From a virus: a DNA stretch of 64,000 nucleotides. Below are positions 34,232-57,982 of this stretch, in pieces. The translations under genes and the position numbers were made by a program. Location of the stretch: positions 32,001 to 96,000 of the IMG/VR virus record IMGVR_UViG_3300027741_000029; one strand, 5' to 3'. The notes beneath the pieces are model-generated. The model made no database searches. It saw only the letters and a list, made by a program, of their open reading frames with translations, and was not told the DNA's origin. Position 1 is the stretch's first letter. Every line of letters starts with the position of its first letter.

Positions 34232-34234
34232 TTC

Positions 34235-34269: not shown

Positions 34270-34271
34270 CT

Positions 34272-34303
34272 ATAGGGGGGTAAATTACCCCCCTATTTTT
34301 TTT
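34272..34303 (+). terminator. Intrinsic terminator
   Basis: ATAGGGGGGTA-AAT-TACCCCCCTAT followed by a T-run. Confidence 0.9.
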
Positions 34304-34359
34304 CTTGACAACCTATATAATTGTGGTATTATAAATTATAAACATTGGAGAACGCAATT

Positions 34360-40225: not shown

Positions 40226-41097
40226 AGATTTGGTTAGTAGGTTCGGGTTATTGGGGAAGTAAGATTGCAACCAAGTTGGAAAAACTACAAATAGATTACT
40301 CTATCATTGATATTAAAAATGGTCAAACGATAAATGACATTGACACTCTTGATCCTGTTATGTTGGCAACACCGCTATGGGATCACTATGAACAAGCAAA
40401 GTATCTTATTGATCGTGGACATGATGTTTATATTGAAAAACCAGCCGCTGAAAACTATGACCAAATAGCAGAACTTGTTAAACTGACAAAAGATAATATT
40501 GTAATGGTTGGACACATTTATATGTATAATCCAATCCTACATAAACTCAAAGACCTTATTGATAGCGGTAGACTTGGCGAGGTTCAATTTGTTAATAGCG
40601 TTCGCACTAATCTTGGCATTTACCAAACTAAGACAACTCCGCTGCTAAGTTTAGCACCACATGATTTTACTATTGTAAGTTATCTGTTAGGCGATTTGCA
40701 TGTTCGTAGTGCACAAGGATTTAAGTACAGTCCTAACAGTCCATATCCTGACCGTGTGCTAGTTAATGGAACAAACTGGCATATTGATGTTAGTTGGCTG
40801 CATCCTGAACGCAAACGTGAGGTCACTGTTATCGGTGATAAGGCACAAGCAATATGGAATGATGACACAAGAACACTGCGTATATATGAGAACAATATTG
40901 TAGGTGCCAAACTCCATTTAAATGATCCAGATGAGTATTGGGATTTTAATAATTTACCAGACCCACTAGAAAATGAATTAGCACATTTTATTAATTGTGT
41001 TGAAACTCGTGCTACGCCAGATAGTGATTTAAAATATGCTAGAAAAATTGCAGATTATATTGATATTGCACACTTTTTATTGGACATCACCATATAA
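40222..41097 (+). CDS. Gfo/Idh/MocA family oxidoreductase
   Basis: VGSGYWG, ATP..H, HDVYIEKP, MVGH, LAPHD; start at MKIWLV. Confidence 0.88.
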   Translation: MKIWLVGSGYWGSKIATKLEKLQIDYSIIDIKNGQTINDIDTLDPVMLATPLWDHYEQAKYLIDRGHDVYIEKPAAENYDQIAELVKLTKDNIVMVGHIYMYNPILHKLKDLIDSGRLGEVQFVNSVRTNLGIYQTKTTPLLSLAPHDFTIVSYLLGDLHVRSAQGFKYSPNSPYPDRVLVNGTNWHIDVSWLHPERKREVTVIGDKAQAIWNDDTRTLRIYENNIVGAKLHLNDPDEYWDFNNLPDPLENELAHFINCVETRATPDSDLKYARKIADYIDIAHFLLDITI

Positions 41098-42630
41098 TTG
41101 AGTAAAGTGATTGCGCAACCATTCCCAACGAAATGTGTTGCGACGAATCTCTGGCGTATCCATGTTATCTTCATAGAAACGTACACCATCATTAGCACCA
41201 CGTAATGCCCATTCAGCATAATTACCATTAGCAATCGTGTGCCAAATATGTAATCTATATTGTGTTTCAACGTTTGGCATTGTATCTGTAAATTCACGAA
41301 GTTTGTGTGCTTCACGAAACGCTGTTCTCCAAGTATGATAAGGAGAAGCATTGAAAGAACCATAGCAAGAAACAATAGGCACAACTTCGTGATCAAAACT
41401 CAAGGTATAATCAGTGCCAAACTCGCCAAATGGTGGAGCATTTAGCACCATATCCCGATTATATAATACGATTCCCATGTGACCATAACGCAAACCATTA
41501 ACAGTGTTCTCACTATAAAATATATAGTGTTTGGGTTTTTGCCAATAGTCAGCACCAATGTCAAAATTAAATGTTGGATGAATTTCAGTCTTGGCAAATA
41601 CAGCATAGAAGTACGGCGTATCAGATTTGCCTGCTGCTGCTTTAAGAGCATTTTCCATTCCGCTAACACCATGAACTCGTTTAGCACGTGGAAATTTTTC
41701 TACTAGTTTATACCAGTTGGCATCTGCTTCTGGTTCATCATAGGATATAAAAATAATATCATTGAGTGCATCAAACCCATATTGCGGATAACGTAGCAGA
41801 TGTGGGTATTCATATAGTTCATCTTTTACAATGCAATCTCGTGGCACAAGCGTGGTGCTATTGTTTTTATTGATGCTAATTACTGGTCTTTTATCCCATA
41901 AGCAAACATCTGGATAATCAACAAATCCAGTATGCGAGTAAACAGTGTATATGGCATTTAATCTGTTAGTTAGATTAAGTTCTCTTGCCAAACTATCTTG
42001 TGTAATTTTAATATTTGGCCAACGTTTGCGTTTTATTGGCACATGATCAAAATTATAATTTTGTTCGCCTCTCTTATAAGCATCTGCATTTATTAAAAAG
42101 GTATCGCCCTTCTCACAGGTTCCACTTGGCCAACAATGGATATAGTTCATATCATGATTGCTAGGCAACCAACTAAAATCAAATCCATCATAATCACAGC
42201 AATCTGCTATAATCCATAACCAAGGTTTTGTGCATTTATTAACAGCAGAATCAATCGCTGCTTGCATGGTGGTTATTAAACGAACTTGAAAATCTACCGA
42301 ATGTGTATTATCAAAACTATTAGTGTTTAACAAACATGTATCATAATATTTGTTATCACTTGCAGACAATATTTCATCGTGATGTACGGTTCCGTTATCA
42401 TTATCTACTGGTATCAACCATGTTGAATAATGTTGCGCATTGTTATGGCTTGGCCAAGCATGTTTATATTGTAACTGATGGCGGTTAGGCATCCAACGAA
42501 AATTAAACTTGCTATAATCTACATCACGATTAGCAAGCCATACATATTCTGTTTTGCTACATTGTTTTGCTTTCGCAATTAAAATTTCAATATCACCATC
42601 ACTATAATCATACCAAACTATATCAAACAT
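41077..42630 (-). CDS. Glycosyltransferase-like protein with three degenerate repeats
   Basis: C-terminal domain paralogous to 53898-54836 (IFISYDEP..NW..AKRVHGV); repeated W..D..F.F.W.P...H.W. Confidence 0.55.
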   Translation of the reverse strand: MFDIVWYDYSDGDIEILIAKAKQCSKTEYVWLANRDVDYSKFNFRWMPNRHQLQYKHAWPSHNNAQHYSTWLIPVDNDNGTVHHDEILSASDNKYYDTCLLNTNSFDNTHSVDFQVRLITTMQAAIDSAVNKCTKPWLWIIADCCDYDGFDFSWLPSNHDMNYIHCWPSGTCEKGDTFLINADAYKRGEQNYNFDHVPIKRKRWPNIKITQDSLARELNLTNRLNAIYTVYSHTGFVDYPDVCLWDKRPVISINKNNSTTLVPRDCIVKDELYEYPHLLRYPQYGFDALNDIIFISYDEPEADANWYKLVEKFPRAKRVHGVSGMENALKAAAGKSDTPYFYAVFAKTEIHPTFNFDIGADYWQKPKHYIFYSENTVNGLRYGHMGIVLYNRDMVLNAPPFGEFGTDYTLSFDHEVVPIVSCYGSFNASPYHTWRTAFREAHKLREFTDTMPNVETQYRLHIWHTIANGNYAEWALRGANDGVRFYEDNMDTPEIRRNTFRWEWLRNHFTQLYGDVQ

Positions 42631-43735
42631 GGCTATTATAACCAGGCATCAAATAATCAATTTGACGTTGTTCATGGTCTGCATCAGCCCAACTATAATC
42701 ATATATTGCCTTGATGCCATCCACTTCTATAGAATAGATATCAAGTTTATCACCCATAACATCCCAAATTTTGAAAATATCATGTGTTCCAAAACTGCGT
42801 TCTAAATCAATATGTCCAAGTTCAAGATAACCTAGACTTAGATTAGTATCTTGTGGATCATAACCTTCACGAACTAACCATTCATTAAATTTAACCACTT
42901 CTTCTCGTAGCCAAGGACTTAAATTCATCGTAACATCACGACCCCACTCAATATCAAACTCACCGCTATAATATTGTAAATGTGTGATAGCATCACAGGT
43001 TGCTTGGTCTAATACGGGAGCGCCTTCATCACGAAATACTTCCATAAGTGTTTTGCCAATCTGTGTCCAATGCATATAAACATGTGCAAACCTGCGATCA
43101 TGTCCATTTACAGTAAATCCTTCACGATGCTCTGCAGTTAGATTATAACGAGTAGCATTTAAAAAAGTAGTAATTTGAGATGGACGAATCCATTCAGGTT
43201 TAAATCTTTGCTTGCGTAAACTTAAACAAAGTGTTTCAATTTCATGACACAGATTGTTAACTTGCCTAATACTATATTTTACATTTGGAGGCGCAAGTTT
43301 ATAGTACAAACTTAAATTTTCAACCGTGCCTTGTAAGTGTTCAAAATAATTATGGACTTCATTCATTACTTCGTGATTTGGTCCACCGCTACTAGGATCA
43401 TCTGTTAATGGTAGCATTACAGTTGCGGGTGTGTAGAAAGTTTTAATGTTTATACTATCTAATCCAGCCGATTGCCATACACCAATTTCGTTAAAGGTGT
43501 AAATTCTAAGTGTATGCTTGCGCAATTCTTTGCATAGATAATTAAGGTCACGTGCACCGTTTGGCCAACCATGCCAACAATAATTTTTTTCAAGTTCACT
43601 ATTTTTTTGTAATTCTAATTTAAGAGCAGTAACCCAATCACGTGCTAATCCAGTATCATTTGGTTTAATATAATATGTTAATTTTTCTTCTTTGCGCATG
43701 GGATTGCGCAGCGTTACAGCAATTTCACTCATCAA
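42623..43735 (-). CDS. Hypothetical protein in the radical SAM cluster
   Basis: 370-aa ORF overlapping both neighbours. Confidence 0.7.
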   Translation of the reverse strand: MMSEIAVTLRNPMRKEEKLTYYIKPNDTGLARDWVTALKLELQKNSELEKNYCWHGWPNGARDLNYLCKELRKHTLRIYTFNEIGVWQSAGLDSINIKTFYTPATVMLPLTDDPSSGGPNHEVMNEVHNYFEHLQGTVENLSLYYKLAPPNVKYSIRQVNNLCHEIETLCLSLRKQRFKPEWIRPSQITTFLNATRYNLTAEHREGFTVNGHDRRFAHVYMHWTQIGKTLMEVFRDEGAPVLDQATCDAITHLQYYSGEFDIEWGRDVTMNLSPWLREEVVKFNEWLVREGYDPQDTNLSLGYLELGHIDLERSFGTHDIFKIWDVMGDKLDIYSIEVDGIKAIYDYSWADADHEQRQIDYLMPGYNSHV

Positions 43736-45047
43736 TATTTTTCCACCAATTCAAAACATCTCCAGTTAAGATGTCTTCCATTTTTATTTTAACATCTTTT
43801 CTTAGAGATTCCAATTTTAAAAGATGTGCTTTGCCTTTTATTGCCTCTTGTTTATAATTGTTAGGAAACTGCTCAGCAAACGTAGGGCGAGTTTTAAGAT
43901 GTTCTAACACATCCCAAAGACTTTGTGTACGACGAGTGATGAGCGGTTTAATACGCTCCTGTATGCCCTCTAGGAGTGGTTCTAGGACCGTTCTAGGCAG
44001 CGCAAGAGGGCTGAGTAGTATATCAGGAGAGAAAGCAAATACAACCTTGCTCAACAGTTCTACATTCAGTTCATCGGATAAATTGATAATGCTCTCAAGG
44101 TCGTAAAGACCAGGTAAAGTAAGAGTAAAATCAATACGCATTTGTCTAGGGGTTTTTGAAGATTCAATCCCCCGTCGAAAGCTATTATACCACTCGCTAT
44201 AATTAAGGCCAGTCCTAACATATTCGCCAATTGCTCCTGTTCCATCTAAACTTGCGCATATTTCCCAATGTGGGAAATTTTCAAGAAGTTCCCATAGGGT
44301 TCCTTCTTTATCCTGACAATAACTCAAGTTTGTATTATATCTTACACGAACTTGGTCAGCATAGTCAAGTTCTATTATTCGCCGCATGAATGTCCAATGC
44401 TCATCGTAGAGTAATGGTTCGCCACCTACCCAATAGATTTCACGCACACTTTTATTTTCAATAGCTTCACGAAACTCTGGTATTACTACATCACGAGTAA
44501 AGTCACGAATAGCATGACGGTTTTTAGGTTGCATCCAGTGATTTTTTGGGTTAGACAAATCAACCATATTGTTTTTACGAACTTCAACTTCCCATGCACT
44601 ACTCAACATATCGCCACACATACGGCACTTGAAGTTACATACATTGCTATAGCGATAGTCCCAAGAGATAGGTTCTAAGGTTGTGTAGCCATTGCTATCT
44701 GTAGAAGAAACAATGTCCCCTCGTAAATGCCCAAAGAGGTTCCCAAAATAATCACGATATACAGAAGTGTTAAGCAACTTTTTATCACATACTTCGCAAG
44801 CAGAAGGAACCACACCAGCCAACCACTGTTTTCTAATTTCTCTAATATGTTCGCCATTCCACCAATCTTTTAATGTAAGTGGCGTAAACTTACCATCGCC
44901 ACCAGCAGTATCGATATACTGTTGAAAATTTTGTGCAGGTTCACGAGAAGCACAGCATAGGCGTCTTTCACCGACAGGAGAAATAAATGTGTGCGTAAAT
45001 GGGGCTAGGCAGAAGTCCATAAATTGTTCTTTATTATTTTCTGTCAT
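43725..45047 (-). CDS. Radical SAM protein, N-terminal SPASM/twitch-like domain
   Basis: CNFKCRMC, GGEPL; FCLAPF/LCC/CEVC. Confidence 0.9.
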   Translation of the reverse strand: MTENNKEQFMDFCLAPFTHTFISPVGERRLCCASREPAQNFQQYIDTAGGDGKFTPLTLKDWWNGEHIREIRKQWLAGVVPSACEVCDKKLLNTSVYRDYFGNLFGHLRGDIVSSTDSNGYTTLEPISWDYRYSNVCNFKCRMCGDMLSSAWEVEVRKNNMVDLSNPKNHWMQPKNRHAIRDFTRDVVIPEFREAIENKSVREIYWVGGEPLLYDEHWTFMRRIIELDYADQVRVRYNTNLSYCQDKEGTLWELLENFPHWEICASLDGTGAIGEYVRTGLNYSEWYNSFRRGIESSKTPRQMRIDFTLTLPGLYDLESIINLSDELNVELLSKVVFAFSPDILLSPLALPRTVLEPLLEGIQERIKPLITRRTQSLWDVLEHLKTRPTFAEQFPNNYKQEAIKGKAHLLKLESLRKDVKIKMEDILTGDVLNWWKNIDE

Positions 45048-45066
45048 TATTTGCCTAAATAATAGT

Positions 45067-45116
45067 GTAGGCCACGGACTGCAATCCCGCCTACTCTATG
45101 TTGAAAAGGAACACAG
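45067..45116 (+). promoter_or_regulatory. Two-hairpin leader of the endonuclease gene, second hairpin over the RBS
   Basis: GTAGGC/GCCTAC with inner GGA-CTGCAA-TCC; CTATGTT/AACACAG around GAAAAGG. Confidence 0.55.
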
Positions 45117-45118
45117 CA

Positions 45119-45727
45119 ATGGTATTTAATACCCAACAATTCCCACAAAATTATTATGTCTATGCGTTTTTACGAGAAACTGATTTAACTCCATATTATA
45201 TTGGCAAAGGCATTGGTAAAAGAGCATTTGCAACACACGGCAGAAGAGTTTCTGCCCCCAAAGACAAAAATAGAATAATAATATTATATCAAAATCTTAC
45301 AGAAAATCAAGCATATAATATAGAAATATTGTTGATTGATTTTTATGGACGAGAAGACCTTGGGACTGGTCGTTTATTAAACATGACAAGTGGGGGCGAT
45401 GGTAGAAGTAAAATTATTGTCAAGGAAGAAACAAGAGAAAAACTCAGCAATGCGAGCAAAGGAAAAAATAATCCAATGTTTGGAAAAACTGCATGGAATA
45501 GAGGACAGACAAAAGAAACTAATCAAAAATTAGCAGAGATTGGAAATAAATTGAAGGGGCATAAAGCATGGAATGTTGGAGTTCCACACACCGATGAGGC
45601 AAAAAATAAAATGTCAATTTCCAGAAAGGGTAGAAAATTATCAGAAGAACACAAAAGAAAGTTAAGTGAAAGCAAACGAGGAGATAAAAATCCAAACTTT
45701 GGAAAAATACCGTGGAATAAAAAATAA
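45119..45727 (+). mobile_element. Free-standing GIY-YIG-like homing endonuclease with NUMOD3 repeats, opposite strand to host operon
   Basis: YYVY..PYYIGKG..R..E..LI..G..L.NMTSGGDG; NUMOD3 HTDEAKNKMS and LSEEHKRKLS. Confidence 0.85.
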
Positions 45728-45728
45728 A

Positions 45729-46892
45729 TCATTCATAACCTATCGCCGCTGCTACTTCTGGATGATGATCACTAAATTTTTGATTGCGTTGAATGTCACT
45801 ATTCTTTAATGCTTCTACAAGTTTAGTACAATCACTGCCTTCACCTTGCATCATAAACTGCAATAAATTAACAACTTCGTCATTATATGGACCGCTATAA
45901 TTTTTAAGTTTATTATTAATAAGTTCTTTTGCAGCAGCATTTAATCGTGAAATACTGAAATGCCAAGCATCATGTAGCACATTAAAATATACATAATCAA
46001 AACGTTGTTGGGCAATCCATTCACACATTTCATCAATATAATAGAAGTTTTGTACATTTGAAGTCATACATAATTGTAATTTAATATTTGTATTAGTATC
46101 ACGGAGATCATAAAGACGTTGGAGATTATCCATCGCCTTATCCCAATTAGAACCATAACGTTGATATTCAAAGCGTGGACCAATATCATCTACACTAACT
46201 GCTATTTCAACTAATTTAAAATGAGGCCAAATTTCTAATCCACGTTTTGGAAATGTAGTTAAATTGGTATTATAATGTATTTCAATGTCTTTGGCATATC
46301 CCATTTCAACTGCTATTTCCAATAGAGTAAAGTGCTCATCAATAAGAAATGGTTCACCGCCTGTAAACTCAAAATATTTTGAATTTGCTAGAAGTTCAGT
46401 TAAATCTGACCAAAAACGCTGAGCCTCACGAGGCCAACGACCTTTTTCAAGGTTTTCACGAGCAGTTGTATTGCCAGGATGAATATCAATTTCTTCTTGC
46501 GCCCATTTTGAACTGCTGAAACTGCCACATATACGACATTTTAAATTACAAATGTTACCAAGTTTTAAATCAAGAAATGCAAGACTGCCATCGCTACTAC
46601 TAGTAAATTTTTTGTCACCTATAATTTGCCGTAATCTAGAAATGCTATGCATACGTTTGCTTGTGCGTCCGCTATCTTCTTCTGCCCAACATCGATTACA
46701 GTTAGCAGGTTTTTCACCATCTAAGAAACTTTGACGAAGCGCAACCATATAAGAACTATTAAATGCTTCGGTTAGCGTATTTGTTTTTAAATCAATATCT
46801 GGAATAGTTTCATAACTTAAACAACATACTTTGCATTTACCCATTGGGTCTGCTTCAATACTTACAAAAGGTAATACACAAAAGTTATCCAT
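45729..46892 (-). CDS. Radical SAM protein, N-terminal SPASM/twitch-like domain
   Basis: CNLKCRIC, GGEPF; FCVLPF/VCC/CNRC. Confidence 0.9.
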   Translation of the reverse strand: MDNFCVLPFVSIEADPMGKCKVCCLSYETIPDIDLKTNTLTEAFNSSYMVALRQSFLDGEKPANCNRCWAEEDSGRTSKRMHSISRLRQIIGDKKFTSSSDGSLAFLDLKLGNICNLKCRICGSFSSSKWAQEEIDIHPGNTTARENLEKGRWPREAQRFWSDLTELLANSKYFEFTGGEPFLIDEHFTLLEIAVEMGYAKDIEIHYNTNLTTFPKRGLEIWPHFKLVEIAVSVDDIGPRFEYQRYGSNWDKAMDNLQRLYDLRDTNTNIKLQLCMTSNVQNFYYIDEMCEWIAQQRFDYVYFNVLHDAWHFSISRLNAAAKELINNKLKNYSGPYNDEVVNLLQFMMQGEGSDCTKLVEALKNSDIQRNQKFSDHHPEVAAAIGYE

Positions 46893-48192
46893 TTAACATT
46901 CCTAACTCTGGAACAATGTCAAGTAATTTTTCAGTGCGTATTGCATCCATCTTATTTGTACGATCCCAAAACTTTGGTATTAAATTAGTTTTATCATCTG
47001 CCATCATAAAATTAATAGCACTTTCAAACCCTGTCGTGGCACGTCTTAAACTATCTAAAGGCGTTAACCATTCAATATGCTCTAGATACATTGATTTAAT
47101 ATCAGATTTACACTTTTGTGGTAGTATATCGATTCTAAAAAATGGCGGGTCTTGTAGAATATTAACATTTAAATCTTGTGGTTTTAAAAAACCTTTTTGT
47201 ACCCAATCTTTATGAAATTTAGGTAACTGCCATATGTTCATAACACTTAATGTTGGACTAATATAAAAGTCAACCTGTGGACATACACGCAACATTTCTT
47301 CACGATTGCGCTCAGTTTGTGACCAGTCAGTTCCTTTGCGTACTAATTCTGCAAGTGGTCCCATGGCATCTAGGCTAGCACCAACACATACATTACTAAA
47401 CTCATTCCAAAGTTCTAACACGTTTTGTTTTTTATAACGCAATTCACTAAAGTTAGTATTATAGATAAGTCTTACATCATTTTTGCCTTTCTTTAGCAAC
47501 GCATTAAGAATACGATAGTGTTCTTCCATAATAAGCGGTTCACCACCAGCAAAATAGATATGTTCAACATAATCAAGATGCGGCTCTAGTTGCTCCCAAA
47601 CATCTAATTGTGTACGTCCAGCATATTCAATTCTTTTATTATGTTTCTTAAAATATTCTGAATCATTTCCTTCAACTTCGAGCAATTTAACCTGGTCATC
47701 ATACCAATTTGAACTAAAAATATGACCACAACTACGGCAACGAAAATTACATAGATTACTAAAACGAATATCCCAATAAGACAATGTTAATTCTTCAAGA
47801 TGTCCTTCGCCGGTAGTACTGTCAACTCTGCCGATATGGTGACCAAATCTTTTATTGCTACTATTACGCATACTAAAAAATCCAGCATCTTCTTGTTCAT
47901 AACATTTTTTACAAGCCCCACATGATTTTTCGGTAAGCATGTTTGTTCTAGTTTGCCGCATAGCATCACTATTCCAAACTTCTTTAATTGTAGATTCTCG
48001 CAAATTGCCAACTGGATGATCCATTTCAGCAGCGCAACAAATATATGCTGGTCCTGTTGGGAATGCATGCAAATGCGTCCAAGGCAACATACAAAAAGTT
48101 TTACTTTCCATAAGCAAAAATTTTTGTCGTTCGTCTAGTTTTTCTAGTTCAATAAACTCTGGAGTTCTTTCATTATAATTATAAACTGTCAT
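46885..48192 (-). CDS. Radical SAM protein, N-terminal SPASM/twitch-like domain
   Basis: CNFRCRSC, GGEPL; FCMLPW/ICC/CKKC; probable start MTVYNY. Confidence 0.9.
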   Translation of the reverse strand: MTVYNYNERTPEFIELEKLDERQKFLLMESKTFCMLPWTHLHAFPTGPAYICCAAEMDHPVGNLRESTIKEVWNSDAMRQTRTNMLTEKSCGACKKCYEQEDAGFFSMRNSSNKRFGHHIGRVDSTTGEGHLEELTLSYWDIRFSNLCNFRCRSCGHIFSSNWYDDQVKLLEVEGNDSEYFKKHNKRIEYAGRTQLDVWEQLEPHLDYVEHIYFAGGEPLIMEEHYRILNALLKKGKNDVRLIYNTNFSELRYKKQNVLELWNEFSNVCVGASLDAMGPLAELVRKGTDWSQTERNREEMLRVCPQVDFYISPTLSVMNIWQLPKFHKDWVQKGFLKPQDLNVNILQDPPFFRIDILPQKCKSDIKSMYLEHIEWLTPLDSLRRATTGFESAINFMMADDKTNLIPKFWDRTNKMDAIRTEKLLDIVPELGMLNG

Positions 48193-49525
48193 ACCAATCA
48201 CTCAATTCTGGAAATGTTTTTGTAAAATTTTTATCACGGCGTTGGTCATACTGAGTATAAAATGTCTTAAAATCTTGCTGCAATATATCCATTGAACTAG
48301 CACCAGCATGTGGCGATTCCACACTATTTAAGTATTCAATCAGACGACGAATATGTTCTATCTCCATCTGATGCAACCAATGGCTATCACTCCAACGATC
48401 AAGAAACTGTTGTAGTTGTTCTTTACAACGTTGTTTAACTTCGCTAGGCATTACCAACGGGCTTTGAAAACTAGGGAAACGTAAGATATTAAGCGTGATG
48501 GTAAGACTATCACGACCATATGCTTGCTTAAAATCAATCATATGTTCAAGGAAGTTGGGAAGTTTAGGCAAGCACAATCCATTAATAGTTGCCATAACAT
48601 GCATCTGTTTTACAGCACCACTCTTATAAAGTTTAACCATATTATCAAACCATTGGTAATAATTTAAACCATCACGAATATATTCTGCTTGACCATTCAA
48701 ACTTTCACAACTGGTATAAACTTCAACATCTAAACCACAAACAGCATCAATGAACTCATCAATTTTCTTTGTTTCTAAACCAAGGTTACTATTGATGGCA
48801 AGTTTGGTTTGACTCTTACCACGATTTTCTTTAAACCATTTTAGTAGTTTCCATGTATGTCCACTCATAAGTGGCTCGCCACCCGTGATGCGAAGTTCAC
48901 GCAGCGTTTTGTGTAGGTCACTTTCCCACCACTTAAAGAATGCTTCTACATAAGGATTGGTATCGGTATATCCATAGACTTGGCTACTGTCGTGAGGATG
49001 TGTAAAATGATTACGCCCATCGCTAACCAACCCGCTATAACCGCCATTCGTTTTAATATCTCGGACCCAGGTCGTGCTAAATGCAGGATTACAATAGCTA
49101 CAGGCAAAATTGCAAGTACGGTCAAAGGCTATCTCCAAGGTTCTAAGGTTTACATCACTATCAGGTGGAAGATTAAACGCATCATTGAGTTCTTCTTCAC
49201 TAAATATCATACTTTTATAAGGTCTATCACTGATAGCAGTAGCACTGGTATCTTCAATCTTCCAACAATATTCACAACCAGTAGGTCGTTCTCCTCGCTG
49301 CATTTGTGCACGTTGTTTTTTCTTTTCAGGTGTGTTGTGCAGAGCAGAGGGGTTGGTTAACACTTGTTCAACACTGACTTGATGTGGTAGAGGGTGATGG
49401 CAACTAGTAGTTTGCCCACTGCCCAACCAAATAGTTGCGTTATACCATTTAGCTCCACAAAAAGAAGCACTTTTGCTATCTAGAACACGTTTCTTATATT
49501 CTGAATAAAAGTTATTTTCTACCAT
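48179..49525 (-). CDS. Radical SAM protein, N-terminal Cys domain
   Basis: CNFACSYC, GGEPL; FCGAKW/SCHH/CEYC. Confidence 0.9.
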   Translation of the reverse strand: MVENNFYSEYKKRVLDSKSASFCGAKWYNATIWLGSGQTTSCHHPLPHQVSVEQVLTNPSALHNTPEKKKQRAQMQRGERPTGCEYCWKIEDTSATAISDRPYKSMIFSEEELNDAFNLPPDSDVNLRTLEIAFDRTCNFACSYCNPAFSTTWVRDIKTNGGYSGLVSDGRNHFTHPHDSSQVYGYTDTNPYVEAFFKWWESDLHKTLRELRITGGEPLMSGHTWKLLKWFKENRGKSQTKLAINSNLGLETKKIDEFIDAVCGLDVEVYTSCESLNGQAEYIRDGLNYYQWFDNMVKLYKSGAVKQMHVMATINGLCLPKLPNFLEHMIDFKQAYGRDSLTITLNILRFPSFQSPLVMPSEVKQRCKEQLQQFLDRWSDSHWLHQMEIEHIRRLIEYLNSVESPHAGASSMDILQQDFKTFYTQYDQRRDKNFTKTFPELSDWYDSL

Positions 49526-50559
49526 TTAGTTGAATATTCCTGTGTAACAATGTGTGATGCGCATTTATTTAAGCATTCAGAAATTGATCCAAATTTATTA
49601 AACATGTCAGTCCAACCATCCCAATTTAATACAGTTTCCATATTAAAAGTATTTAAATTTAACTCAGATCGTATGAACAAGTTATATGTATTCATATCAT
49701 AACGATTTCCCATCCAACAACAAGGAAAGAAAATTCCTTGACTATTAATATATAAACCCTTGTTGCCAATCCAACATAATGGTGTTAAATTTCCAATACT
49801 ACTACGATTTTCATAGTACATTAAATTTGCAGCAAGACTATGTGTAATATCAGGTGTTCTGTCAGTAAAGTTTATCACATCTCGTGTAAAACGACCATTT
49901 GTTATATATTGCTCTTCGGGTTGAAGTTCGTCTATGCCATTGGTATTATAATTATCATAGTTAATTCCAAATTTAGAACTACGAGTAAGTTGGAAACTAT
50001 CAAATCCTAATTGTTGTGCAATATTTTGCATATTTTCAATTTTATGTTGATTATATTTGAATACAATCGCTGCCCAACGAATCGTTACTTTAGTATTTTT
50101 TCTTAATTCAATAACACCATCAATAATGCTCTGCCAATTACTATTTTTTCTATATGTTGAATTACTTTCTTGGTTCCATCCATCCAAGCTAAAATGAATT
50201 TCATCATATTCATTCAATAGCGTGGATAACTTACTCCACCAATCAATTGTTTTATAACTACCATTAGTTACTATCAATAAATTAATAGATGGCTTACATT
50301 TTTTAATATATTCAATGATTTTTAAGAAATCTTTTGCGTATATCGGATCACCATCATCACCACAAAAACTCATTCGTGTGACATGAGTTTGTAAAAAATG
50401 TGGAGTAAAATTTCTTTCAAAAAATTTCAAACTTAAACTAGTTTGTATAAGTGTATCTGGTAATTCTGTACGAGGACAACGAGGGCATTGCAGAGTGCAA
50501 ATACTACTTGCCTCAAAATGCCAGTGCCACAATGGCCACCGATAAATATTTTTCACCAT
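49519..50559 (-). CDS. Radical SAM protein with C-terminal twitch domain
   Basis: CTLQCPRC, GDDGDP; C-terminal LC..PCC..CLNKC; start taken at MVKNIY. Confidence 0.85.
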   Translation of the reverse strand: MVKNIYRWPLWHWHFEASSICTLQCPRCPRTELPDTLIQTSLSLKFFERNFTPHFLQTHVTRMSFCGDDGDPIYAKDFLKIIEYIKKCKPSINLLIVTNGSYKTIDWWSKLSTLLNEYDEIHFSLDGWNQESNSTYRKNSNWQSIIDGVIELRKNTKVTIRWAAIVFKYNQHKIENMQNIAQQLGFDSFQLTRSSKFGINYDNYNTNGIDELQPEEQYITNGRFTRDVINFTDRTPDITHSLAANLMYYENRSSIGNLTPLCWIGNKGLYINSQGIFFPCCWMGNRYDMNTYNLFIRSELNLNTFNMETVLNWDGWTDMFNKFGSISECLNKCASHIVTQEYSTKW

Positions 50560-52027
50560 GATAGATTTAATTCTCCTCAATGTACCTGCTGTTAGTTTGT
50601 CATATCCACTGGCAGGCACTGCAATCTTAAAAGCAGCCGTAGAAAAAAATGGCTATACAAGTAAGATTATTGATCTTAATTATAACCTAATGCATGACAT
50701 AAATCAAGATTATTCAGTTGCATTAGAAAGTTATTTTACACTTGGTCATTCATTAGACGAAGTGTTTAATTTAATCTATCAACAGTTTTTAGAAGAAAGT
50801 GTAAACACTATACTATCATTAAACCCAAGATTTATAGGAATAAGTGTTTTTACATTTGAATGTCAAAAATTTACGGTTGATATCTGCAATACATTACATG
50901 ATAAAAGCTATAGTGGAAAGATAGTTATAGGTGGTGCTGGATTGAGCACAACTGGAATAGCAACAAAAGTTAATGATTTTGGCAATAAAATGGTTAATAT
51001 TGGATTAGTAGATTATTATATAAGAGGCGAAGCCGATATTGCTATTGTTGAATTATTAAATGGTAATACTACATTTGCTGGTATAAACAACGATGATTTT
51101 AAACAAATTGACGATTTAAATGTTAATTATGTTCCTGATTATGTTGATATATTGGGCAATCAGTATGCCTGGCCATACGGTAAACCAGTTATTCCTATAA
51201 CTGGAAGCCGTGGATGCGTTAGAGAATGCACATTCTGTGATATTCATAAGTTTTGGCATAAATTTAGATTTCGTACTGGTGATAATATTGCTGCAGAAAT
51301 GATAAAACAATATCAGAAATATGGCATTAGAGATTTTTACTTTACTGACAGTTTAATCAATGGAAGCATGCGAGCATTCAGGAATCTATGTGAAAGTTTG
51401 ATTAATTACTATGCAGAAAATAACTTACCAAACAAATATTTTAGTTGGGGTGGACAATTTATTATTCGTAGTTCACTGCAAATGTCCGCAGAAGATTATA
51501 AACTAGCATCAAAAGCAGGACTAAACGGTGTTGCCATAGGTATTGAAAGTGGCAGCGATTCGGTTCGTGAACATATGAAAAAGAAATTTAGCAACGTTGA
51601 TATTGATTTTGCAATTGAAAATCTTAGTAAAAACAATATAAACTGTTATTTTTTAATCATAGTTGGATATCCTACCGAAACAGAACAAGATTTTCAAGAT
51701 ACAATTAATATGTTTGAAAGATATCAACCATATAGTGTTGATGGAACTATATTTGGTGTAAACTTAGGCGGTACTTTAAGCATAGACGAGGGTACTGAAA
51801 TTTATGAAAAACAAGTTGAACTTGGAATGTCAGAATTAGATAATAATTTATTTGGTTTAAATTGGGTTTCAAAGTATAATGAAACACTTACCATTGAAGA
51901 AAGAATACGCCGTCGCATTGTATTACAAGAAAAACTTATGGATATGAACTATCAAGTATGGAATGGCGATCATCAATTGAAGAGATTAATAAAAAGTTAT
52001 GAACGAATTGCAAACAGAACATATTGA
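50558..52027 (+). CDS. Cobalamin-binding radical SAM protein (methyltransferase-like)
   Basis: N-terminal B12-binding-like domain (IGISVF..IGGAG..GEAD), GSRGCVRECTFC, GIESGS. Confidence 0.88.
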   Translation: MIDLILLNVPAVSLSYPLAGTAILKAAVEKNGYTSKIIDLNYNLMHDINQDYSVALESYFTLGHSLDEVFNLIYQQFLEESVNTILSLNPRFIGISVFTFECQKFTVDICNTLHDKSYSGKIVIGGAGLSTTGIATKVNDFGNKMVNIGLVDYYIRGEADIAIVELLNGNTTFAGINNDDFKQIDDLNVNYVPDYVDILGNQYAWPYGKPVIPITGSRGCVRECTFCDIHKFWHKFRFRTGDNIAAEMIKQYQKYGIRDFYFTDSLINGSMRAFRNLCESLINYYAENNLPNKYFSWGGQFIIRSSLQMSAEDYKLASKAGLNGVAIGIESGSDSVREHMKKKFSNVDIDFAIENLSKNNINCYFLIIVGYPTETEQDFQDTINMFERYQPYSVDGTIFGVNLGGTLSIDEGTEIYEKQVELGMSELDNNLFGLNWVSKYNETLTIEERIRRRIVLQEKLMDMNYQVWNGDHQLKRLIKSYERIANRTY

Positions 52028-52499
52028 GTTAGTAATTAATTATAGAAGTCAGGCAAATAATGGCTGGCCAATTATTAGTTTCTATGTAAATGATATCTTA
52101 ATTGATACGATACATGCAGATAATGATAAAGTTAATTTATCATTTAACGTACCCATTGGAGATTGGAAATTTAGTGCAATTCATTGGGGCAAGAACCCGC
52201 ACAATGAGTCAAGCCCAGATAAATTTTTTGAAATTACGGATATAACTATCAATAAAGTAAACATTAGTAGAATAATTCACCGTGGTATACAATATCCACA
52301 ATTGCCCCCGTGGGAAAAAGCACAGGTATCGTGGGTGGGAAATTTATATATGGGACATAATGGCAAGATTGAATGGAATTTTACTAGTCCAATATATGAT
52401 TATTTGCGCCAAGAATTTAATACAGTGGTAAAACCAATTGTTGGACAAGAAACAACAAGAGAAGTATTAGAGCAGACAAAGAAATTCTTTAATCTTTAA
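51999..52499 (+). CDS. Hypothetical protein coupled to the B12 radical SAM gene
   Basis: 166-aa ORF overlapping upstream gene. Confidence 0.65.
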   Translation: MNELQTEHIELVINYRSQANNGWPIISFYVNDILIDTIHADNDKVNLSFNVPIGDWKFSAIHWGKNPHNESSPDKFFEITDITINKVNISRIIHRGIQYPQLPPWEKAQVSWVGNLYMGHNGKIEWNFTSPIYDYLRQEFNTVVKPIVGQETTREVLEQTKKFFNL

Positions 52500-53941
52500 C
52501 CCTTATCCGCCCAATACTTACAATTATTATACCAATCTACCATTTCTGGAAATGTCGCAAGGAAATTTGTCTTACGGCGAGCATCATGTTCACTAAAGAA
52601 ACGATAGAAATCTGCCGCTGCATTAGTATCTTCACGGTGATGTTCGTGCATCCAATCTACCACACGTTGAAGTTTAGCAATTTCATAATCCTTGAACCCA
52701 TTGAAGCGTGTAGCAACTGTTTCTGCTTGTGGTTTCATCCAATGGACAATATTTTGCAAGAACCAAGCATAACTTGGCGGTAGTATATCAATACACTGCC
52801 ATTGAGGTTCACGAAGAATTGGAGTATCAAACCAAATGCGCTGATAGGTCTTGCTATACTTGGCACGAAGTTGTAGTATCCATTGCATCAATTCTTGAAG
52901 ACTTGTGATGTTTAGCACGTTCATCGTAATGATAAATGTCACGCTATTACGACTTGGAACTTCTTCCAAGAAACGCTCAACATTTCGTTTCATAAGTTCA
53001 AATTCAAGACCATGGCGAGCATATTCAGCACGTTCTCCGTATCCGTCGATAGAGACAAACTGCATGAAATGCTCTAGCACATGGTTACCACACATATGTT
53101 TAACATAGGTTAGATACTTGTCAAACACATATTCATCTTGACTAAAGTTAGAGGTTACATTAAGATGTAAATCTTTCTTTGGGTTTTCTAATACGTAGTC
53201 AAATACACGATAAGTATTGCGATCCATAAGAGGCTCGCCGCCTGTCATACGGAAGTGTTTTAGGTTAGGGTAGAGTTCTGGCCACCATCTCCAGAACGCA
53301 TCAACATAAGGATTATCTTCCCGATTCGGTATAGGTTTACGATCACCCCGAAAGTAAGCAGGACTATTATGACTATTAGAGGTAGGATAAGCACCAAAAT
53401 CATTGATTTCCTTCATCCACGAACTACTAAACTGTGGACTGCAATATGAACAACTTAAATTACAAGCACTGTTAAAGTTTACTTCAACATAACTTGGATT
53501 TGGATTCCACGTTAGTGGGTCTTGAACCAAAATCTCGCTAAACTTCTCAGCAGCCCAAGGTTCTCCACTGCGGTAATGTCGGTCAGATAAGTTTCCCGTG
53601 GCTTCAACTCGCCAGCAATATGAACATTCTTCTGGCTTTTCTCCACCAAGCATTCTTGCTCTCTGGGTCTTTTTATGAGCGGTGTTATGGAGCGCACTGG
53701 GGTTATCTTGTAACTCATTGGCATCAATCCTATGTAGTGGTGGGTGGTAACAACTGTTGGTATGACCTGTTGTTAGGTGTATACTGGTCTGCTGCCACTT
53801 TGCAAGGCAAAGAGCGGGTCCAAGTTTTGTTTGCATTTGTTCAGCAGAGAACATAAAGTCGCTGTGAAGATTGCCTTCATTATCAGCAACTGCCCGATCA
53901 CCACTGTTGTCTAGCCGCACTTCTGATGACACTATGGACAT
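52496..53941 (-). CDS. Radical SAM protein, N-terminal Cys domain (paralog of 48179-49525)
   Basis: CNLSCSYC, GGEPL; LCLAKW/SCYH/CSYC; start uncertain. Confidence 0.88.
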   Translation of the reverse strand: MSIVSSEVRLDNSGDRAVADNEGNLHSDFMFSAEQMQTKLGPALCLAKWQQTSIHLTTGHTNSCYHPPLHRIDANELQDNPSALHNTAHKKTQRARMLGGEKPEECSYCWRVEATGNLSDRHYRSGEPWAAEKFSEILVQDPLTWNPNPSYVEVNFNSACNLSCSYCSPQFSSSWMKEINDFGAYPTSNSHNSPAYFRGDRKPIPNREDNPYVDAFWRWWPELYPNLKHFRMTGGEPLMDRNTYRVFDYVLENPKKDLHLNVTSNFSQDEYVFDKYLTYVKHMCGNHVLEHFMQFVSIDGYGERAEYARHGLEFELMKRNVERFLEEVPSRNSVTFIITMNVLNITSLQELMQWILQLRAKYSKTYQRIWFDTPILREPQWQCIDILPPSYAWFLQNIVHWMKPQAETVATRFNGFKDYEIAKLQRVVDWMHEHHREDTNAAADFYRFFSEHDARRKTNFLATFPEMVDWYNNCKYWADKG

Positions 53942-54836
53942 CCCTTTCTGGTAACATGATATCAATATTTTGATATGCTCGCTGATGCTTTTTATACCAA
54001 GCACTTTGTTCAGGAGACATGCTTATTATATCAAGATTAAGACGTTTACGCAATATGTTTGCATACTGCTCACTTTGTTGTAAACCTTTATCTATTGTAA
54101 AGTTCCACAATATATCTAGTTTTTTGAAATCACGAACTTCACGATAATCCCAATCATCGTCAAACATAGTCATATAGGCACCTTGTCTGGCACCCATTAT
54201 TGCCCATTTGCCGAACTCAACATCGCTACCAACAGTACACCAAATAACAAGATTCGCACGATTCCCAATCCAAGTGGCATTTTCAAACTCCTCTGGCGTA
54301 GGTCTACGACCACGATCTAAACATAATTTAACTCCTTCACGGAATCCTGCTTGCCATGCTTGCTGTGGACTGCCATTTGGATCGGTTGTACTCCACACAT
54401 CATGCATAGCCCAATAACGATTATCAAAACAAAACTCAACAGCGGTATGATTACTGCCATCGGTTGCTTCATGTGTGCGCATATTGTTTACAAAATCTTT
54501 TGTCCAACTACTAATGCCACCATTTCCATAACAAAGACCATTAATAATATTCTTTGCTCTCCAACGAAATACACAATCCCTGTTACGATCATCAATGCGT
54601 AATTGTTGATTAAAAAATTCTGGGTTTGGTAGATTGTCAGCATCAATAAGAATAAATCGTTCTGTGTCACTGGCAGCAGCCGCTGCCTTGTGTGCAGCAT
54701 CCGAACCTTCTATACCATCAACTCGTTTTGCCCATGGAGCAAATGAACGCACATATGACCAATTTGCATCAGCATTTGGTTCTTTGTAACTTAGAAAGAT
54801 ACAATCTAATTCACTAATATCAATAATCTCAGACAC
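53898..54836 (-). CDS. GT-A fold glycosyltransferase-like protein
   Basis: IFLSYKEP, DxD motif in LIDADN; probable GTG start overlapping upstream stop. Confidence 0.65.
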   Translation of the reverse strand: MSEIIDISELDCIFLSYKEPNADANWSYVRSFAPWAKRVDGIEGSDAAHKAAAAASDTERFILIDADNLPNPEFFNQQLRIDDRNRDCVFRWRAKNIINGLCYGNGGISSWTKDFVNNMRTHEATDGSNHTAVEFCFDNRYWAMHDVWSTTDPNGSPQQAWQAGFREGVKLCLDRGRRPTPEEFENATWIGNRANLVIWCTVGSDVEFGKWAIMGARQGAYMTMFDDDWDYREVRDFKKLDILWNFTIDKGLQQSEQYANILRKRLNLDIISMSPEQSAWYKKHQRAYQNIDIMLPERDVHSVIRSAARQQW

Positions 54837-55062
54837 TTTTCCATCCTTGTGCATTGGGATAATCAACATCTACAGGAAACTGATAATCATCATGCAGCGT
54901 ATAAACTTCGCTTCCACCACGTTTATAAACAATCTGTGTGGGAAAATTATATGTTGGTGGCGGAGGAGGAACAAATTTAGGCATTTCTGGCAGAACTTGT
55001 TTTGCTAACTCACGTTCTACTTCATCCCACCAAGCCTTGATCTCTTCTTCTGTTAAACTCAT
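54829..55062 (-). CDS. Small hypothetical protein
   Basis: Start MSLTEEE; Pro-rich centre. Confidence 0.55.
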   Translation of the reverse strand: MSLTEEEIKAWWDEVERELAKQVLPEMPKFVPPPPPTYNFPTQIVYKRGGSEVYTLHDDYQFPVDVDYPNAQGWKSV

Positions 55063-55879
55063 GTGTATATCTATCCAATAATTCATCCGTTGCAAAGGTT
55101 TTTTCAACATAATGTAGCGGTCTTGACTGCTTATAATGACCAATAGTGGGAGTAAAATCGTTTTGAATGTCCCAGTTTAATTGTTCATGCCATGGTTGTG
55201 TGCTAAAACAATTCTGCAATTTTGATTTCATATGAACAAAACCAAATCCTGTATCCTGCGGTTTTACATCTAATATCTTTAGCGCAAGCGCATATACTTC
55301 ATCTGTGCGTGGTTCATCATAGCGACAATTGACAAGATAGTTATCACGATAATAATCCCAATCATCTGTAATCATACGCATAGTATCATAAATTTCTTTA
55401 CATGCGGTATCATAGGTGAAATAAGTCCAAGCACTATAAATGTTTGGCATTAGATTTTCATCAAATTGTTGACGATATTTGCGATTGTCAATTGCGTGTC
55501 CATCATAGGTATAAACGCTTTGTGTAAAACTATATGTAAATTGTGCATATGTATTCCATAACCAACTTAAATTGGTTGTGAATAACATATCACATTCTGT
55601 TTTAATCGTGCTTTTGTAAGGACTATATGCAAATGCCTGACATTCATTTTGCATCTTGATCTTGCTGCTTTGTGCAAGGTCATGTTTTAGCACGATAACT
55701 TTATCAAAAACTGCAAGATGCGCATCTGTTACTTGTTCATATGTTTCTTTATCTACAATAACGCTGAAATTATTATCTAGGCTTTGCGTAAGTTTGCAAC
55801 TTAAGGCTTGTAGATAAGCCATTCGTAAATAATCCACGTCTCCGCTGTTCTGTGCAATACAAAGATAACCGTTGCTCAT
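55022..55879 (-). CDS. Glycosyltransferase-like protein (GT8-like)
   Basis: DYLRMA, TIKTECDMLF (ExD), RTDEVYAL, FVHMK. Confidence 0.6.
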   Translation of the reverse strand: MSNGYLCIAQNSGDVDYLRMAYLQALSCKLTQSLDNNFSVIVDKETYEQVTDAHLAVFDKVIVLKHDLAQSSKIKMQNECQAFAYSPYKSTIKTECDMLFTTNLSWLWNTYAQFTYSFTQSVYTYDGHAIDNRKYRQQFDENLMPNIYSAWTYFTYDTACKEIYDTMRMITDDWDYYRDNYLVNCRYDEPRTDEVYALALKILDVKPQDTGFGFVHMKSKLQNCFSTQPWHEQLNWDIQNDFTPTIGHYKQSRPLHYVEKTFATDELLDRYTHEFNRRRDQGLVG

Positions 55880-56637
55880 TGTAATTGTCCCTTATTCATC
55901 AAATGCAAATCTAAATTTTGTAGTTTATTTGCGCATAGTTTTGTTGTTTCGTAATGGTAAACTAACTTATCGTTTTCAAAACTAATATACTTTGTAAAAT
56001 TATCGCAATTAACAAGCGGATACTTCACAAATCCATAATTTTTTGAACCATATCCGCCGATAATATGGCAAGCAATGGTAAAGATATAATCATTGCGTAC
56101 TGGAATACGCTTAAACCCATACAACTCGCTATAATATACATAATGTTTTTGAACATGCTTTGCCATTTCAAATATGTTCTTTGCTTCCTCACACTTGTTG
56201 AAGATAGCAACAGTTGCCCAATACATGTCTATTTGGGTGTTGCCAAGTTTATATCGCTCAACCGTGCCAGTTCGTACATTATACACATCACGAGTCATAA
56301 TAAAATCTGTGTTACTGTTTATATGAGCAAGCAGGTTAGGGGTGCAAATATAATAATCACTATCTATGAGTAGCGTTCTGTTATATGGACTAATATCATA
56401 TAGATCGGTTCTTGAAAGATTATACCATGTAAAATCTTTGCGTAAATTTGCTGTTGGTTTTATGGCAACAATACGATTATGTGATCCAACATTGGCGGTT
56501 TCATCATCTGTTATAATTGTTACAGGTATGTTTAAGTGCTGCACAACACGGTCAGCCGCAGCCACCGCCATCTTTAGATGGTCATGTTTTTCATTATTAA
56601 ATGCGGTAATTATGCATCCATTAGAGTTGACGAGCAT
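55876..56637 (-). CDS. Glycosyltransferase-like protein (GT8-like)
   Basis: SPYNRTLLIDSDY (DxD), RNDYIF; paralog of the adjacent gene. Confidence 0.65.
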   Translation of the reverse strand: MLVNSNGCIITAFNNEKHDHLKMAVAAADRVVQHLNIPVTIITDDETANVGSHNRIVAIKPTANLRKDFTWYNLSRTDLYDISPYNRTLLIDSDYYICTPNLLAHINSNTDFIMTRDVYNVRTGTVERYKLGNTQIDMYWATVAIFNKCEEAKNIFEMAKHVQKHYVYYSELYGFKRIPVRNDYIFTIACHIIGGYGSKNYGFVKYPLVNCDNFTKYISFENDKLVYHYETTKLCANKLQNLDLHLMNKGQLQ

Positions 56638-56962
56638 TTCTAACTTTTGTAAACTCTTCGTATTCTGCTGCAAACTCGTTCATTACTTCATACCAACGGC
56701 GCTGACAAATATATAACAGTTCATGCGGAATAACTTTAACTGGAACATCATAGGCATCCATCATAAAAATTACACCATCCCAATCTTTCCAATTTGGGCC
56801 AAACCATGAATGTAAGAAAGCAATAAGTTCTTGGGTTACGATAAACATACCACCATTATAATTCACGGTCATTCGTGATTCAATGGCAGTATTGATATTT
56901 TGTTTTGCCAGTTCACGATCATATGCTACTCTGGCTGCATCACGCAATTCTTCTGTGTTCAT
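56621..56962 (-). CDS. Hypothetical protein
   Basis: 113-aa first gene of the minus-strand modification operon. Confidence 0.7.
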   Translation of the reverse strand: MNTEELRDAARVAYDRELAKQNINTAIESRMTVNYNGGMFIVTQELIAFLHSWFGPNWKDWDGVIFMMDAYDVPVKVIPHELLYICQRRWYEVMNEFAAEYEEFTKVRNARQL

Positions 56963-56968
56963 ATTACG

Positions 56969-56997
56969 ATTATAATAGAAAAGATAGGAAATGTCAA
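56969..56997 (-). promoter_or_regulatory. Consensus sigma70 promoter
   Basis: TTGACA-N17-TATAAT on the minus strand, ATG 6 nt downstream. Confidence 0.8.
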
Positions 56998-57927: not shown

Positions 57928-57982
57928 ATTTTATAGTTCCCACACTTCTATTTATTTAATCTGTCTAAGTATTTAGAATTTG

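Follow-up and report, generated by a model that had tools for sequence, protein, structure and literature searches.

Virus-encoded glycosylation of structural proteins, as described for the chlorovirus PBCV-1 (A64R), the mimivirus fibril and the mycobacteriophage virion, combines soluble glycosyltransferases (GT) of the GT-A fold with nucleotide-amino-sugar enzymes encoded near structural genes, and to our knowledge none of these systems contains radical S-adenosylmethionine (SAM) enzymes. Some sugars and sugar-like natural products are tailored by radical SAM enzymes that carry an auxiliary cluster or a cobalamin domain, e.g. the twitch-type BtrN, which dehydrogenates sugars, and the class-B B12 enzymes GenK, Fom3 and PhpK, B12 radical SAM enzymes being able to methylate unactivated carbons. 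In the host recognition clusters of pelagimyophages and cyanomyophages, tail fibres are grouped with glycosyltransferases of the GT8 type and with radical SAM cassettes that vary; the carriers, T4-like phages, have genomes of about 150-200 kb, and modification of the host O-chain was the role that the authors saw for the glycosyltransferases (PMC7029224). A T4-like genome from TARA holds as many as 12 radical SAM genes (PMC5332604). Here we analysed a cluster of radical SAM and glycosyltransferase-like genes at 41077-56962 of a 64,000-nucleotide stretch of viral DNA (positions 32,001 to 96,000 of the IMG/VR record IMGVR_UViG_3300027741_000029; the whole stretch is termed the window and all coordinates refer to it). 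We tentatively favour the reading that this operon builds a glycoconjugate on a cytoplasmic acceptor and tailors it by radical chemistry, with a fibre or another virion protein as the leading acceptor.

Like the viral systems above, the locus brings soluble GT-A-type proteins and nucleotide-amino-sugar genes together near structural genes, and PBCV-1 A64R and mimivirus R699 are among the fold matches of its protein 53898-54869. Unlike them, it is dominated by five to eight radical SAM enzymes, and virion glycosylation is here something that we infer. With the pelagimyophage cluster it shares the joint presence of fibres, GT8-like genes and radical SAM enzymes, combined independently in the T4-like phages; it differs from that cluster in its fixed core of five paralogs and in its carriers, phage relatives of Rak2 and Atu_ph07 with genomes of about 340 kb.

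Judged from its genes, the window derives from an uncultured jumbo phage of the Rak2/Atu_ph07 kind: the DNA polymerase (20548-23208) shows 45-49% identity to its counterparts in Sinorhizobium phage Phosso, Agrobacterium phage Atu_ph07 and the GAP32/BF group, and the PHROG and Pfam matches of the window are those of a large myovirus with fibre genes, dihydrofolate reductase (DHFR) and ThyA. A megablast search of the whole cluster against 50,697 phage records gave no match. The minus-strand genes overlap or abut at their ends along the run, and positions 41077-56997 of this strand form one tightly packed transcription unit, interrupted by an inverted plus-strand block (Table 1). The cluster comprises seven radical SAM genes, three GT-A-type GT-like genes with an intact DxD or ExD motif, one degenerate GT-like paralog, two small conserved proteins, a protein of 370 amino acids (aa), a 166-aa open reading frame (ORF), a homing endonuclease and a sigma70-type promoter. 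A preliminary description of this DNA had listed six radical SAM genes on the minus strand and a seventh on the plus strand, all of which are in place, and four GT-like genes, of which three retain DxD or ExD, the fourth (41077-42630) has lost its DxD and one only has support at the level of the fold. Its account of the setting was borne out as well: the operon is on the same strand as the fibre genes, just downstream of them, and converges on the SDR, DegT and Gfo genes.

An IMG/VR scan with the GT-A protein yielded 20 loci, and in 18 of them the whole gene order is identical: fibre, 57004-like gene, 113-aa protein, two GT8-like genes, small ORF, GT-A protein, P1, in some cases the radical SAM gene with C-terminal Cys, P2-P5, 370-aa protein, 41077-like gene and a convergent sugar-nucleotide gene. 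Altogether, co-inheritance of the cluster genes, the lack of which had been named beforehand as one refuting condition, was found as the same gene order in at least 25 related environmental jumbo-phage contigs, and the cluster is therefore not a product of chance; it appears to be a conserved and coherent functional unit. A minimal module (genes 354-348) is present in the cultured, distant Ralstonia phage RsoM2USA from soil, where gene 350 encodes the GT-A protein and gene 349 a radical SAM enzyme; it lies beside a fibre-type gene, a fibre N-terminal domain being located 5' of the module here too. The products of RsoM2USA ORF356, ORF359 and ORF361, encoded just upstream of the module, are virion proteins (PMC8504454). 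Several cluster-bearing jumbo-phage contigs, one of them of 335 kb (L023-L026, L050, L051, L068), had been binned in metagenome-assembled genomes (MAGs) of unrelated phyla (labelled Haliscomenobacter, Verrucomicrobia, Legionellales, Rickettsiales, Neomarinimicrobiota and Fischerella), a placement that is probably due to binning contamination.

Table 1. Features of the radical SAM and glycosyltransferase-like gene cluster and of its flanks, in the order of transcription of the operon (window coordinates).
Feature	Coordinates	Strand	Basis and remarks
Upstream fibre genes: 307-aa Ser/Thr/Asn-rich protein and 406-aa tail fibre	57004..59203	-	tail-fibre PHROGs match 57983-59203
Sigma70-type promoter TTGACA-17-TATAAT	56969..56997	-	12/12 match; ends 6 nt before the first ATG
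First operon gene, conserved 113-aa protein	56621..56962	-	orthologs with 39-96% identity in every related locus, and RsoM2USA gene 354
GT-A/GT8-like candidate glycosyltransferase 1, DxD	55876..56673	-	D103 and D105 invariant
GT-A/GT8-like candidate glycosyltransferase 2, ExD	55022..55879	-	E94 and D96 invariant; RsoM2USA gene 352 31% identical
Conserved 77-aa protein	54832..55062	-	N-terminal helix, Pro-rich linker, C-terminal YTL.(N/D)D.QF.V...GW
GT-A fold GT-like protein, DxD, C-terminal helical domain	53898..54869	-	AF2 and Foldseek
N-twitch radical SAM P1, type B	52496..54004	-	NF033640 337.7 bits; own orthologous clade
Inverted accessory block: B12-type radical SAM and 166-aa ORF	50558..52027 and 51999..52499	+	Pfam, NCBIfam
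Accessory radical SAM, conventional domain order, C-terminal Cys	49519..50619	-	Radical_SAM 30.6 bits; probable start ATG 50559
N-twitch radical SAM P2, type B	48179..49525	-	NF033640 300.3 bits; 51% identity to RsoM2USA gene 202
N-twitch radical SAM P3, type A	46885..48201	-	NF033640 394.9 bits
N-twitch radical SAM P4, type A	45729..46892	-	NF033640 340.9 bits
GIY-YIG/NUMOD3 homing endonuclease, insertion	45098..45727	+	NUMOD3 88 bits; lies between P4 and P5
N-twitch radical SAM P5, type A	43725..45047	-	NF033640 264.1 bits
Conserved 370-aa soluble protein	42623..43735	-	invariant His, Cys, Asp and Trp abundant; 60-75% identity in every relative
Last gene	41077..42630	-	N-terminal repeated W.P/HCWPSG domains; C-terminal half paralogous to the GT-A protein
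Convergent nucleotide-sugar genes: SDR epimerase/dehydratase, DegT aminotransferase, Gfo/Idh/MocA oxidoreductase	38286..41097	+	Pfam

The core of the cluster is formed by five radical SAM paralogs (P1-P5) of the NCBIfam family NF033640 (N_Twi_rSAM, twitch domain-containing radical SAM protein), with scores of 264.1-394.9 bits, all above the curated whole-protein cut-off of 170 bits. PF04055 of Pfam matches all seven radical SAM genes of the cluster, four of them slightly below the gathering score, and in the alignment of P1-P5 with their orthologs the CX3CX2C motif (C137, C141, C144) and GGEP are invariant, as in the radical SAM superfamily. Four further Cys residues (C22, C41, C83, C86), N-terminal to the radical SAM core, are invariant in the same alignment, and Pfam places a SPASM-like Cys domain at that end of all five proteins; this N-terminal twitch domain is predicted to hold an auxiliary Fe-S cluster. 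In a quick IQ-TREE run each paralog fell into its own orthologous clade (SH-aLRT 98-100), which implies distinct roles, and the tree separated two deep types, A (P3-P5) and B (P1, P2). P1-P5 are thus best regarded, on this phylogeny, as old and non-redundant paralogs. A pooled alignment of all radical SAM paralogs proved too diverse for a genome scan. Orthologs of P3 in loci L003-L022 form two identity classes (~60% and ~85%), as do those of P4 (~55% and 73-88%), against uniform flanking genes, which suggests that P3 and P4 may be exchanged as single-gene cassettes inside the operon. A sixth NF033640 member, the eighth radical SAM gene of the window, is encoded 24 kb from the cluster (17581-18672, plus strand, 209.3 bits) and forms a long branch of the tree; a complete 338-kb relative likewise carries one extra N-twitch radical SAM copy outside its cluster.

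The literature yielded no paper dealing with NF033640 or with this cluster, and neither there nor in the PDB did we find a characterised member of the family. As NF033640 is a sequence model only, membership does not specify a reaction. The preliminary description had drawn an analogy with BtrN, for which we found no support: it was founded on the word 'twitch', while the auxiliary-cluster domain is N-terminal in P1-P5, i.e. the domain order is reversed, PDB sequence searches returned no BtrN match or other specific similarity, and the nearest match is a marginal one to MoaA. What the cluster shares with BtrN and with GenK, Fom3 and PhpK is the possession of radical SAM enzymes with a predicted auxiliary cluster or a putative cobalamin domain. 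P1-P5 may act on a sugar, as the genes around them and above all the natural fusions described below suggest, or on a polypeptide.

The two remaining radical SAM genes seem to be accessory. The enzyme of the inverted block (50558-52027) has a Radical_SAM match of 66.3 bits in Pfam and a weak one to the B12-binding domain (21.7 bits, cut-off 32.1), and its best NCBIfam model is the PhpK subfamily with 110.7 bits against a cut-off of 600. The preliminary description had called this enzyme B12-binding; the protein is generically class-B-like, and its scores are far below every equivalog cut-off. The block of this gene and the 166-aa ORF is absent from L003-L022 and recurs, co-oriented, inside the same cluster at two other positions (L025 and L099/L100), the B12 radical SAM recurring only inside this cluster type; it is therefore taken for an accessory part of the same system, with inverted orientation in this window. 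Orthologs of the other accessory gene (49519-50619) occur in about half of the relatives. It has no Pfam SPASM match, and its NCBIfam matches are weak ones to SPASM peptide maturases, all far below cut-off (the best 46.9 bits against 380), so it cannot be classed as a SPASM/twitch maturase. At 50557-50560, the tetranucleotide CATG is common to the start of the plus-strand B12 radical SAM gene and the probable start of the minus-strand gene (ATG 50559, preceded by GAGGAG), the two divergent genes thus having no intergenic space where the inverted block splits the operon.

The link to sugars comes in part from the GT-like proteins, none of which matched Pfam, PHROGs or NCBIfam. The AlphaFold2 (AF2) model of the GT-A protein 53898-54869 (pLDDT 79.7, pTM 0.78) was used for a Foldseek search, in which all the matches listed (rank 49 and above, of about 500) were glycosyltransferases, with E-values down to 2.4e-4; the leading ones were the glycocin S-glycosyltransferases SunS and ThuS and the capsid-glycosylating A64R of PBCV-1, and ArnC was also present. 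In VIA-align the similarity covered residues 1-165 with Z scores of 8-9.4, the matches listed here also including nucleotidyltransferases of the same fold. D75 and D77 of the DxD motif are invariant in the family alignment, and the protein, combining DxD with the modelled GT-A fold, is a candidate sugar transferase. Like SunS and ThuS, it would have a GT-A catalytic domain followed by a helical domain according to the model; unlike them, it shows an identity of only 13-15% and a TM-score of ~0.3, and no glycocin-like, Cys-containing precursor was found. Its family is large (1158 clusters at 50% identity), and some members carry an N-terminal GT-B (GT28/EryCIII-like) domain.

The two GT8-like proteins (55876-56673 and 55022-55879) are mutual paralogs (hhalign probability 96.5%, E 8.5e-10). 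The named ESM Atlas clusters nearest to the former are PF03407/PF01501 at 0.96, which serves as a lead only, and neither protein has a Pfam match, to GT8, PF03407 or otherwise, at E <= 0.01. PDB searches with single sequences and with profiles found nothing significant for these two, for the GT-A protein or for the 370-aa protein (42623-43735). A relation between the GT-A and GT8-like families was sought with hhalign, in which the alignment was confined to the DxD segment and not significant. In the C-terminal half of the last gene product (41077-42630), DxD is replaced by FAK in this clade (alignment A7), while RsoM2USA gene 348 keeps DGD. Three of the GT-like candidates thus look catalytic, from their motifs, and one degenerate.

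A search for fusions, restricted to longer proteins, revealed proteins in which the radical SAM family is joined to glycosyltransferase domains. One protein (P0287) consists of a complete type-B N-twitch radical SAM enzyme, 37% identical to P1 over residues 3-447 and with the twitch motif retained, followed by a GT2 domain (PF00535, 90 bits), and in three others (P0288, P0291, P0292) a GT-A domain (PF10111/PF02709) comes first and the radical SAM domain last. The two architectures imply independent fusions, and these natural fusions are the strongest evidence here that the N-twitch radical SAM family might work together with glycosyl transfer. Type-B radical SAM relatives with 31-48% identity are present on chromosomal contigs of Bdellovibrionota of up to 2.4 Mb, and arrays of four to eight N-twitch radical SAM paralogs were found on Bdellovibrionota contigs and in one Bacteroidota MAG (L090 1-11400, L082, L087, L093). 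Among the neighbours of the Bdellovibrionota arrays are a UDPGP-like nucleotidyltransferase, a methyltransferase and, in a single case, a pilin-like protein, most of the recurrent neighbours being housekeeping genes retained through shared synteny; the commonest partner of type B is a 322-aa family, present in 20 of 67 loci, for which Pfam gave no match and profile comparison no similarity to any protein of the phage cluster. Given these arrays, the radical SAM enzymes are possibly independent of the particular glycosyltransferases of the phage cluster.

The same fusions bear on the alternative that the radical SAM enzymes are protein or peptide maturases (introducing crosslinks, epimerisation or side-chain oxidation) acting on a fibre or on the 113-aa or 77-aa protein, while the glycosyltransferases glycosylate the same protein independently. 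SPASM/twitch enzymes are for the most part peptide-modifying, secondary NCBIfam matches of the cluster radical SAM enzymes are peptide maturases, all far below cut-off, and in the fold search the GT-A protein is matched best by peptide glycosyltransferases; moreover, the operon encodes two conserved small proteins, one with an invariant C-terminal motif that includes a conserved Thr/Ser, and a pilin-like protein follows a radical SAM array in one Bdellovibrionales chromosome. We nevertheless regard this alternative as unlikely: no recognition element of ribosomally synthesised and post-translationally modified peptides (RiPP), i.e. no RRE, and no leader-binding domain was found in the cluster, its small proteins do not have the kind of core, Cys-rich or repeated, that RiPP substrates of radical SAM enzymes typically show, the domains fused to this radical SAM type are glycosyltransferase and not peptide-binding domains, and the pilin match is weak (E 3e-4) and a single case.

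The operon is preceded by a perfect sigma70-type promoter, and its distance from the first start codon implies that the transcript has little or no leader. In all 18 phage relatives (within L003-L022) the two hexamers are conserved at this position, while the spacer sequence drifts. Early-type genes at 24086, 27759, 33101 and 34345 are preceded by the same promoter type (TTGACA-17-TAtAAT). Structural genes at 57927, 59203, 12525 and 15763, including the fibre genes beside the operon, instead have a TAAATAA-type motif 20-35 nt upstream, and not one copy of the T4-type late promoter TATAAATA is present in the 64-kb window, against 7.9 +/- 2.9 expected. The operon is thus a separate unit and, from its promoter class, probably transcribed early. 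Two of the early-type promoters stand before a MoxR-type AAA ATPase gene and the following gene for a DUF2201 metallopeptidase-like/VWA protein (33101-35625, plus strand).

Early expression would fit a pre-loading of the enzymes, and equally well the alternatives of a small molecule or of a host target. A soluble glycosidic small molecule, aminoglycoside-like or other, might be made early in infection, against the host or competitors or as a cofactor, with no decoration of the virion. The DegT and Gfo/Idh genes, the twitch and B12 radical SAM enzymes and the glycosyltransferases resemble aminoglycoside and nucleoside-antibiotic clusters, and all cluster proteins are soluble; adjacent DegT-family, amidinotransferase and radical SAM genes of a cyanomyovirus have been named 'antibiotic synthesis genes' (PMC12801897). 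However, the window showed no gene for a cyclitol synthase, a core-scaffold enzyme, an exporter or self-resistance, and the persistent siting beside fibre genes in different phage groups would be left unexplained, so that we give this possibility little credence.

The flanks and the composition of the operon constrain the acceptor. On its 3' side a sugar-nucleotide gene is present in all relatives; in the window the best NCBIfam models are PseC-like for the DegT aminotransferase and UDP-GlcNAc 3-dehydrogenase-like for the Gfo/Idh/MocA oxidoreductase, all below equivalog cut-offs. On the 5' side both fibre-side genes are found in those relatives whose contigs reach that far (20 contigs), and it is gene position alone that points to the virion as target. 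A co-variation of alleles between the 57004 and 55876 genes was considered and set aside, its basis being a single locus (L004). No transmembrane-like segment was detected in any protein of the 36-62.7 kb region, and the cluster contains no flippase, polymerase or lipid-carrier transferase; the acceptor is therefore placed in the cytoplasm. This composition also bears on the possibility that the enzymes remodel a host envelope glycan, i.e. lipopolysaccharide (LPS) or capsule, so as to block superinfection or to aid release. GT8-like enzymes often act on LPS, and an early-type promoter would suit such a role. The same reading has been proposed for the GT8 genes of the pelagimyophage host recognition clusters (PMC7029224). 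For the present cluster we consider it improbable, as it encodes no membrane-bound transferase, flippase, polymerase, ligase or transmembrane segment and its best fold matches are protein-directed or soluble GT-A enzymes.

Phage DNA had been put forward as an alternative target, on which a modified base would be glycosylated and then tailored by radical chemistry. The early-type promoter and the nearby DHFR-ThyA genes could be reconciled with this, and radical SAM enzymes do take part in some known phage base hypermodifications. ThyA of the window is canonical, as had been described, with the PCH motif and the dUMP-type Asn of PFN retained, and no hydroxymethylase, base kinase or transglycosylase was seen. 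The complete relative (G001; 338 kb, direct terminal repeats, CheckV 100%) has one ThyA-family gene as its sole ThyA, and tRNA-guanine transglycosylase (TGT)/DpdA was not found in its genome, so that the known routes to hypermodified bases, through a ThyA-like hydroxymethylase or through TGT/DpdA, have no support here. DNA modification is accordingly disfavoured by gene content, the earlier suggestion is weakened, and we rate it as highly improbable. Among the alternatives we thus rank protein-directed radical SAM chemistry first, followed by a soluble metabolite, host glycan remodelling and, last, DNA modification.

In the reading that we favour, the operon would be a self-contained set of soluble enzymes under its own host-type sigma70 promoter. 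The SDR, DegT and Gfo genes would supply a nucleotide-activated amino sugar, and the two GT8-like paralogs together with one GT2/SunS-like GT-A enzyme would put sugars on the cytoplasmic acceptor, most likely a virion host-recognition protein encoded just upstream. The five non-redundant N-twitch enzymes, each with a predicted, fully Cys-ligated auxiliary cluster suited to electron transfer, would then perform successive radical C-H chemistry on the glycoconjugate, and the B12-type and C-terminal-Cys enzymes would add further steps in some phages. The preliminary description had spoken of a glycan assembly line, from which the co-inherited unit and the sugar link through GT-A fold, DxD motifs, adjoining amino-sugar genes and GT2 fusions have stood, and the BtrN analogy has not. 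Several points weigh against our reading. NF033640 is without a member of known reaction, the solved sequence relative nearest to P1-P5 is the marginal MoaA match of the PDB searches, and SPASM/twitch enzymes mostly act on peptides. Two of the GT-like proteins (55876, 55022) match no curated GT family and count as candidates, one GT-A paralog (41077-42630) is without DxD, and the Bdellovibrionota arrays of up to eight radical SAM enzymes occur without any phage GT family. Furthermore, the early-type promoter class differs from that of the adjoining fibre genes, so that co-expression with virion proteins would have to be presumed, and the adjacency to fibre genes may be synteny inherited in one phage superclade and not independent evidence.

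A more specific proposal, which we hold to be possible at best, is that the five N-twitch enzymes perform a fixed radical C-H series on the glycan, or on the polypeptide, of a tail-fibre adhesin. Epimerisation, dehydrogenation and formation of C-C or C-S bonds would be the candidate reactions, and the product would be a hardened or diversified virion glycoprotein.

The other proteins of the operon gave few hints. The 113-aa protein had no family match apart from a weak one to phrog_14957 (E 0.0071, 17.3 bits), in which no single stretch passed by itself, and orthologs of the 77-aa protein, of 73-122 aa, lie between the same two genes in all relatives. The 370-aa protein has no match in the family libraries, the PDB or the ESM Atlas (the Atlas matches being at chance level), its AF2 model (pLDDT 56.8) was too poor for a fold search, and no longer, fused relatives were found. 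The homing endonuclease is outside the pathway. In L009 the same site carries a copy with 100% identity, and in L005, L006 and L008 related copies (41-48%) are located at a different site, the junction of the GT8-like gene and the small ORF. Further upstream, between two fibre genes, a 432-aa protein (61311-62609, minus strand) consists almost entirely of Gly-rich repeats of the GGN/GGA/GNS type, and downstream of it on the minus strand are a 102-aa ORF, a DUF6065 protein and a 2-oxoglutarate (2OG)-Fe(II) oxygenase (PF13759).

A large part of this operon consists of radical SAM genes, and operons of a related kind are present in hundreds of aquatic jumbo-phage contigs. The question of their role is directly testable, because the cultured phage RsoM2USA carries a minimal version. 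If a fixed C-H series on an adhesin proved true, virions would have a post-translational modification of a new class and NF033640 its first function, and the exchange of single paralogs as cassettes would tune host range. The cluster enzymes would also offer radical chemistry, on sugars or proteins, that is new. If their product decorates the host-recognition apparatus, radical chemistry would be added to virion glycosylation, and this could account in part for the hypervariable host recognition clusters that marine phages carry.

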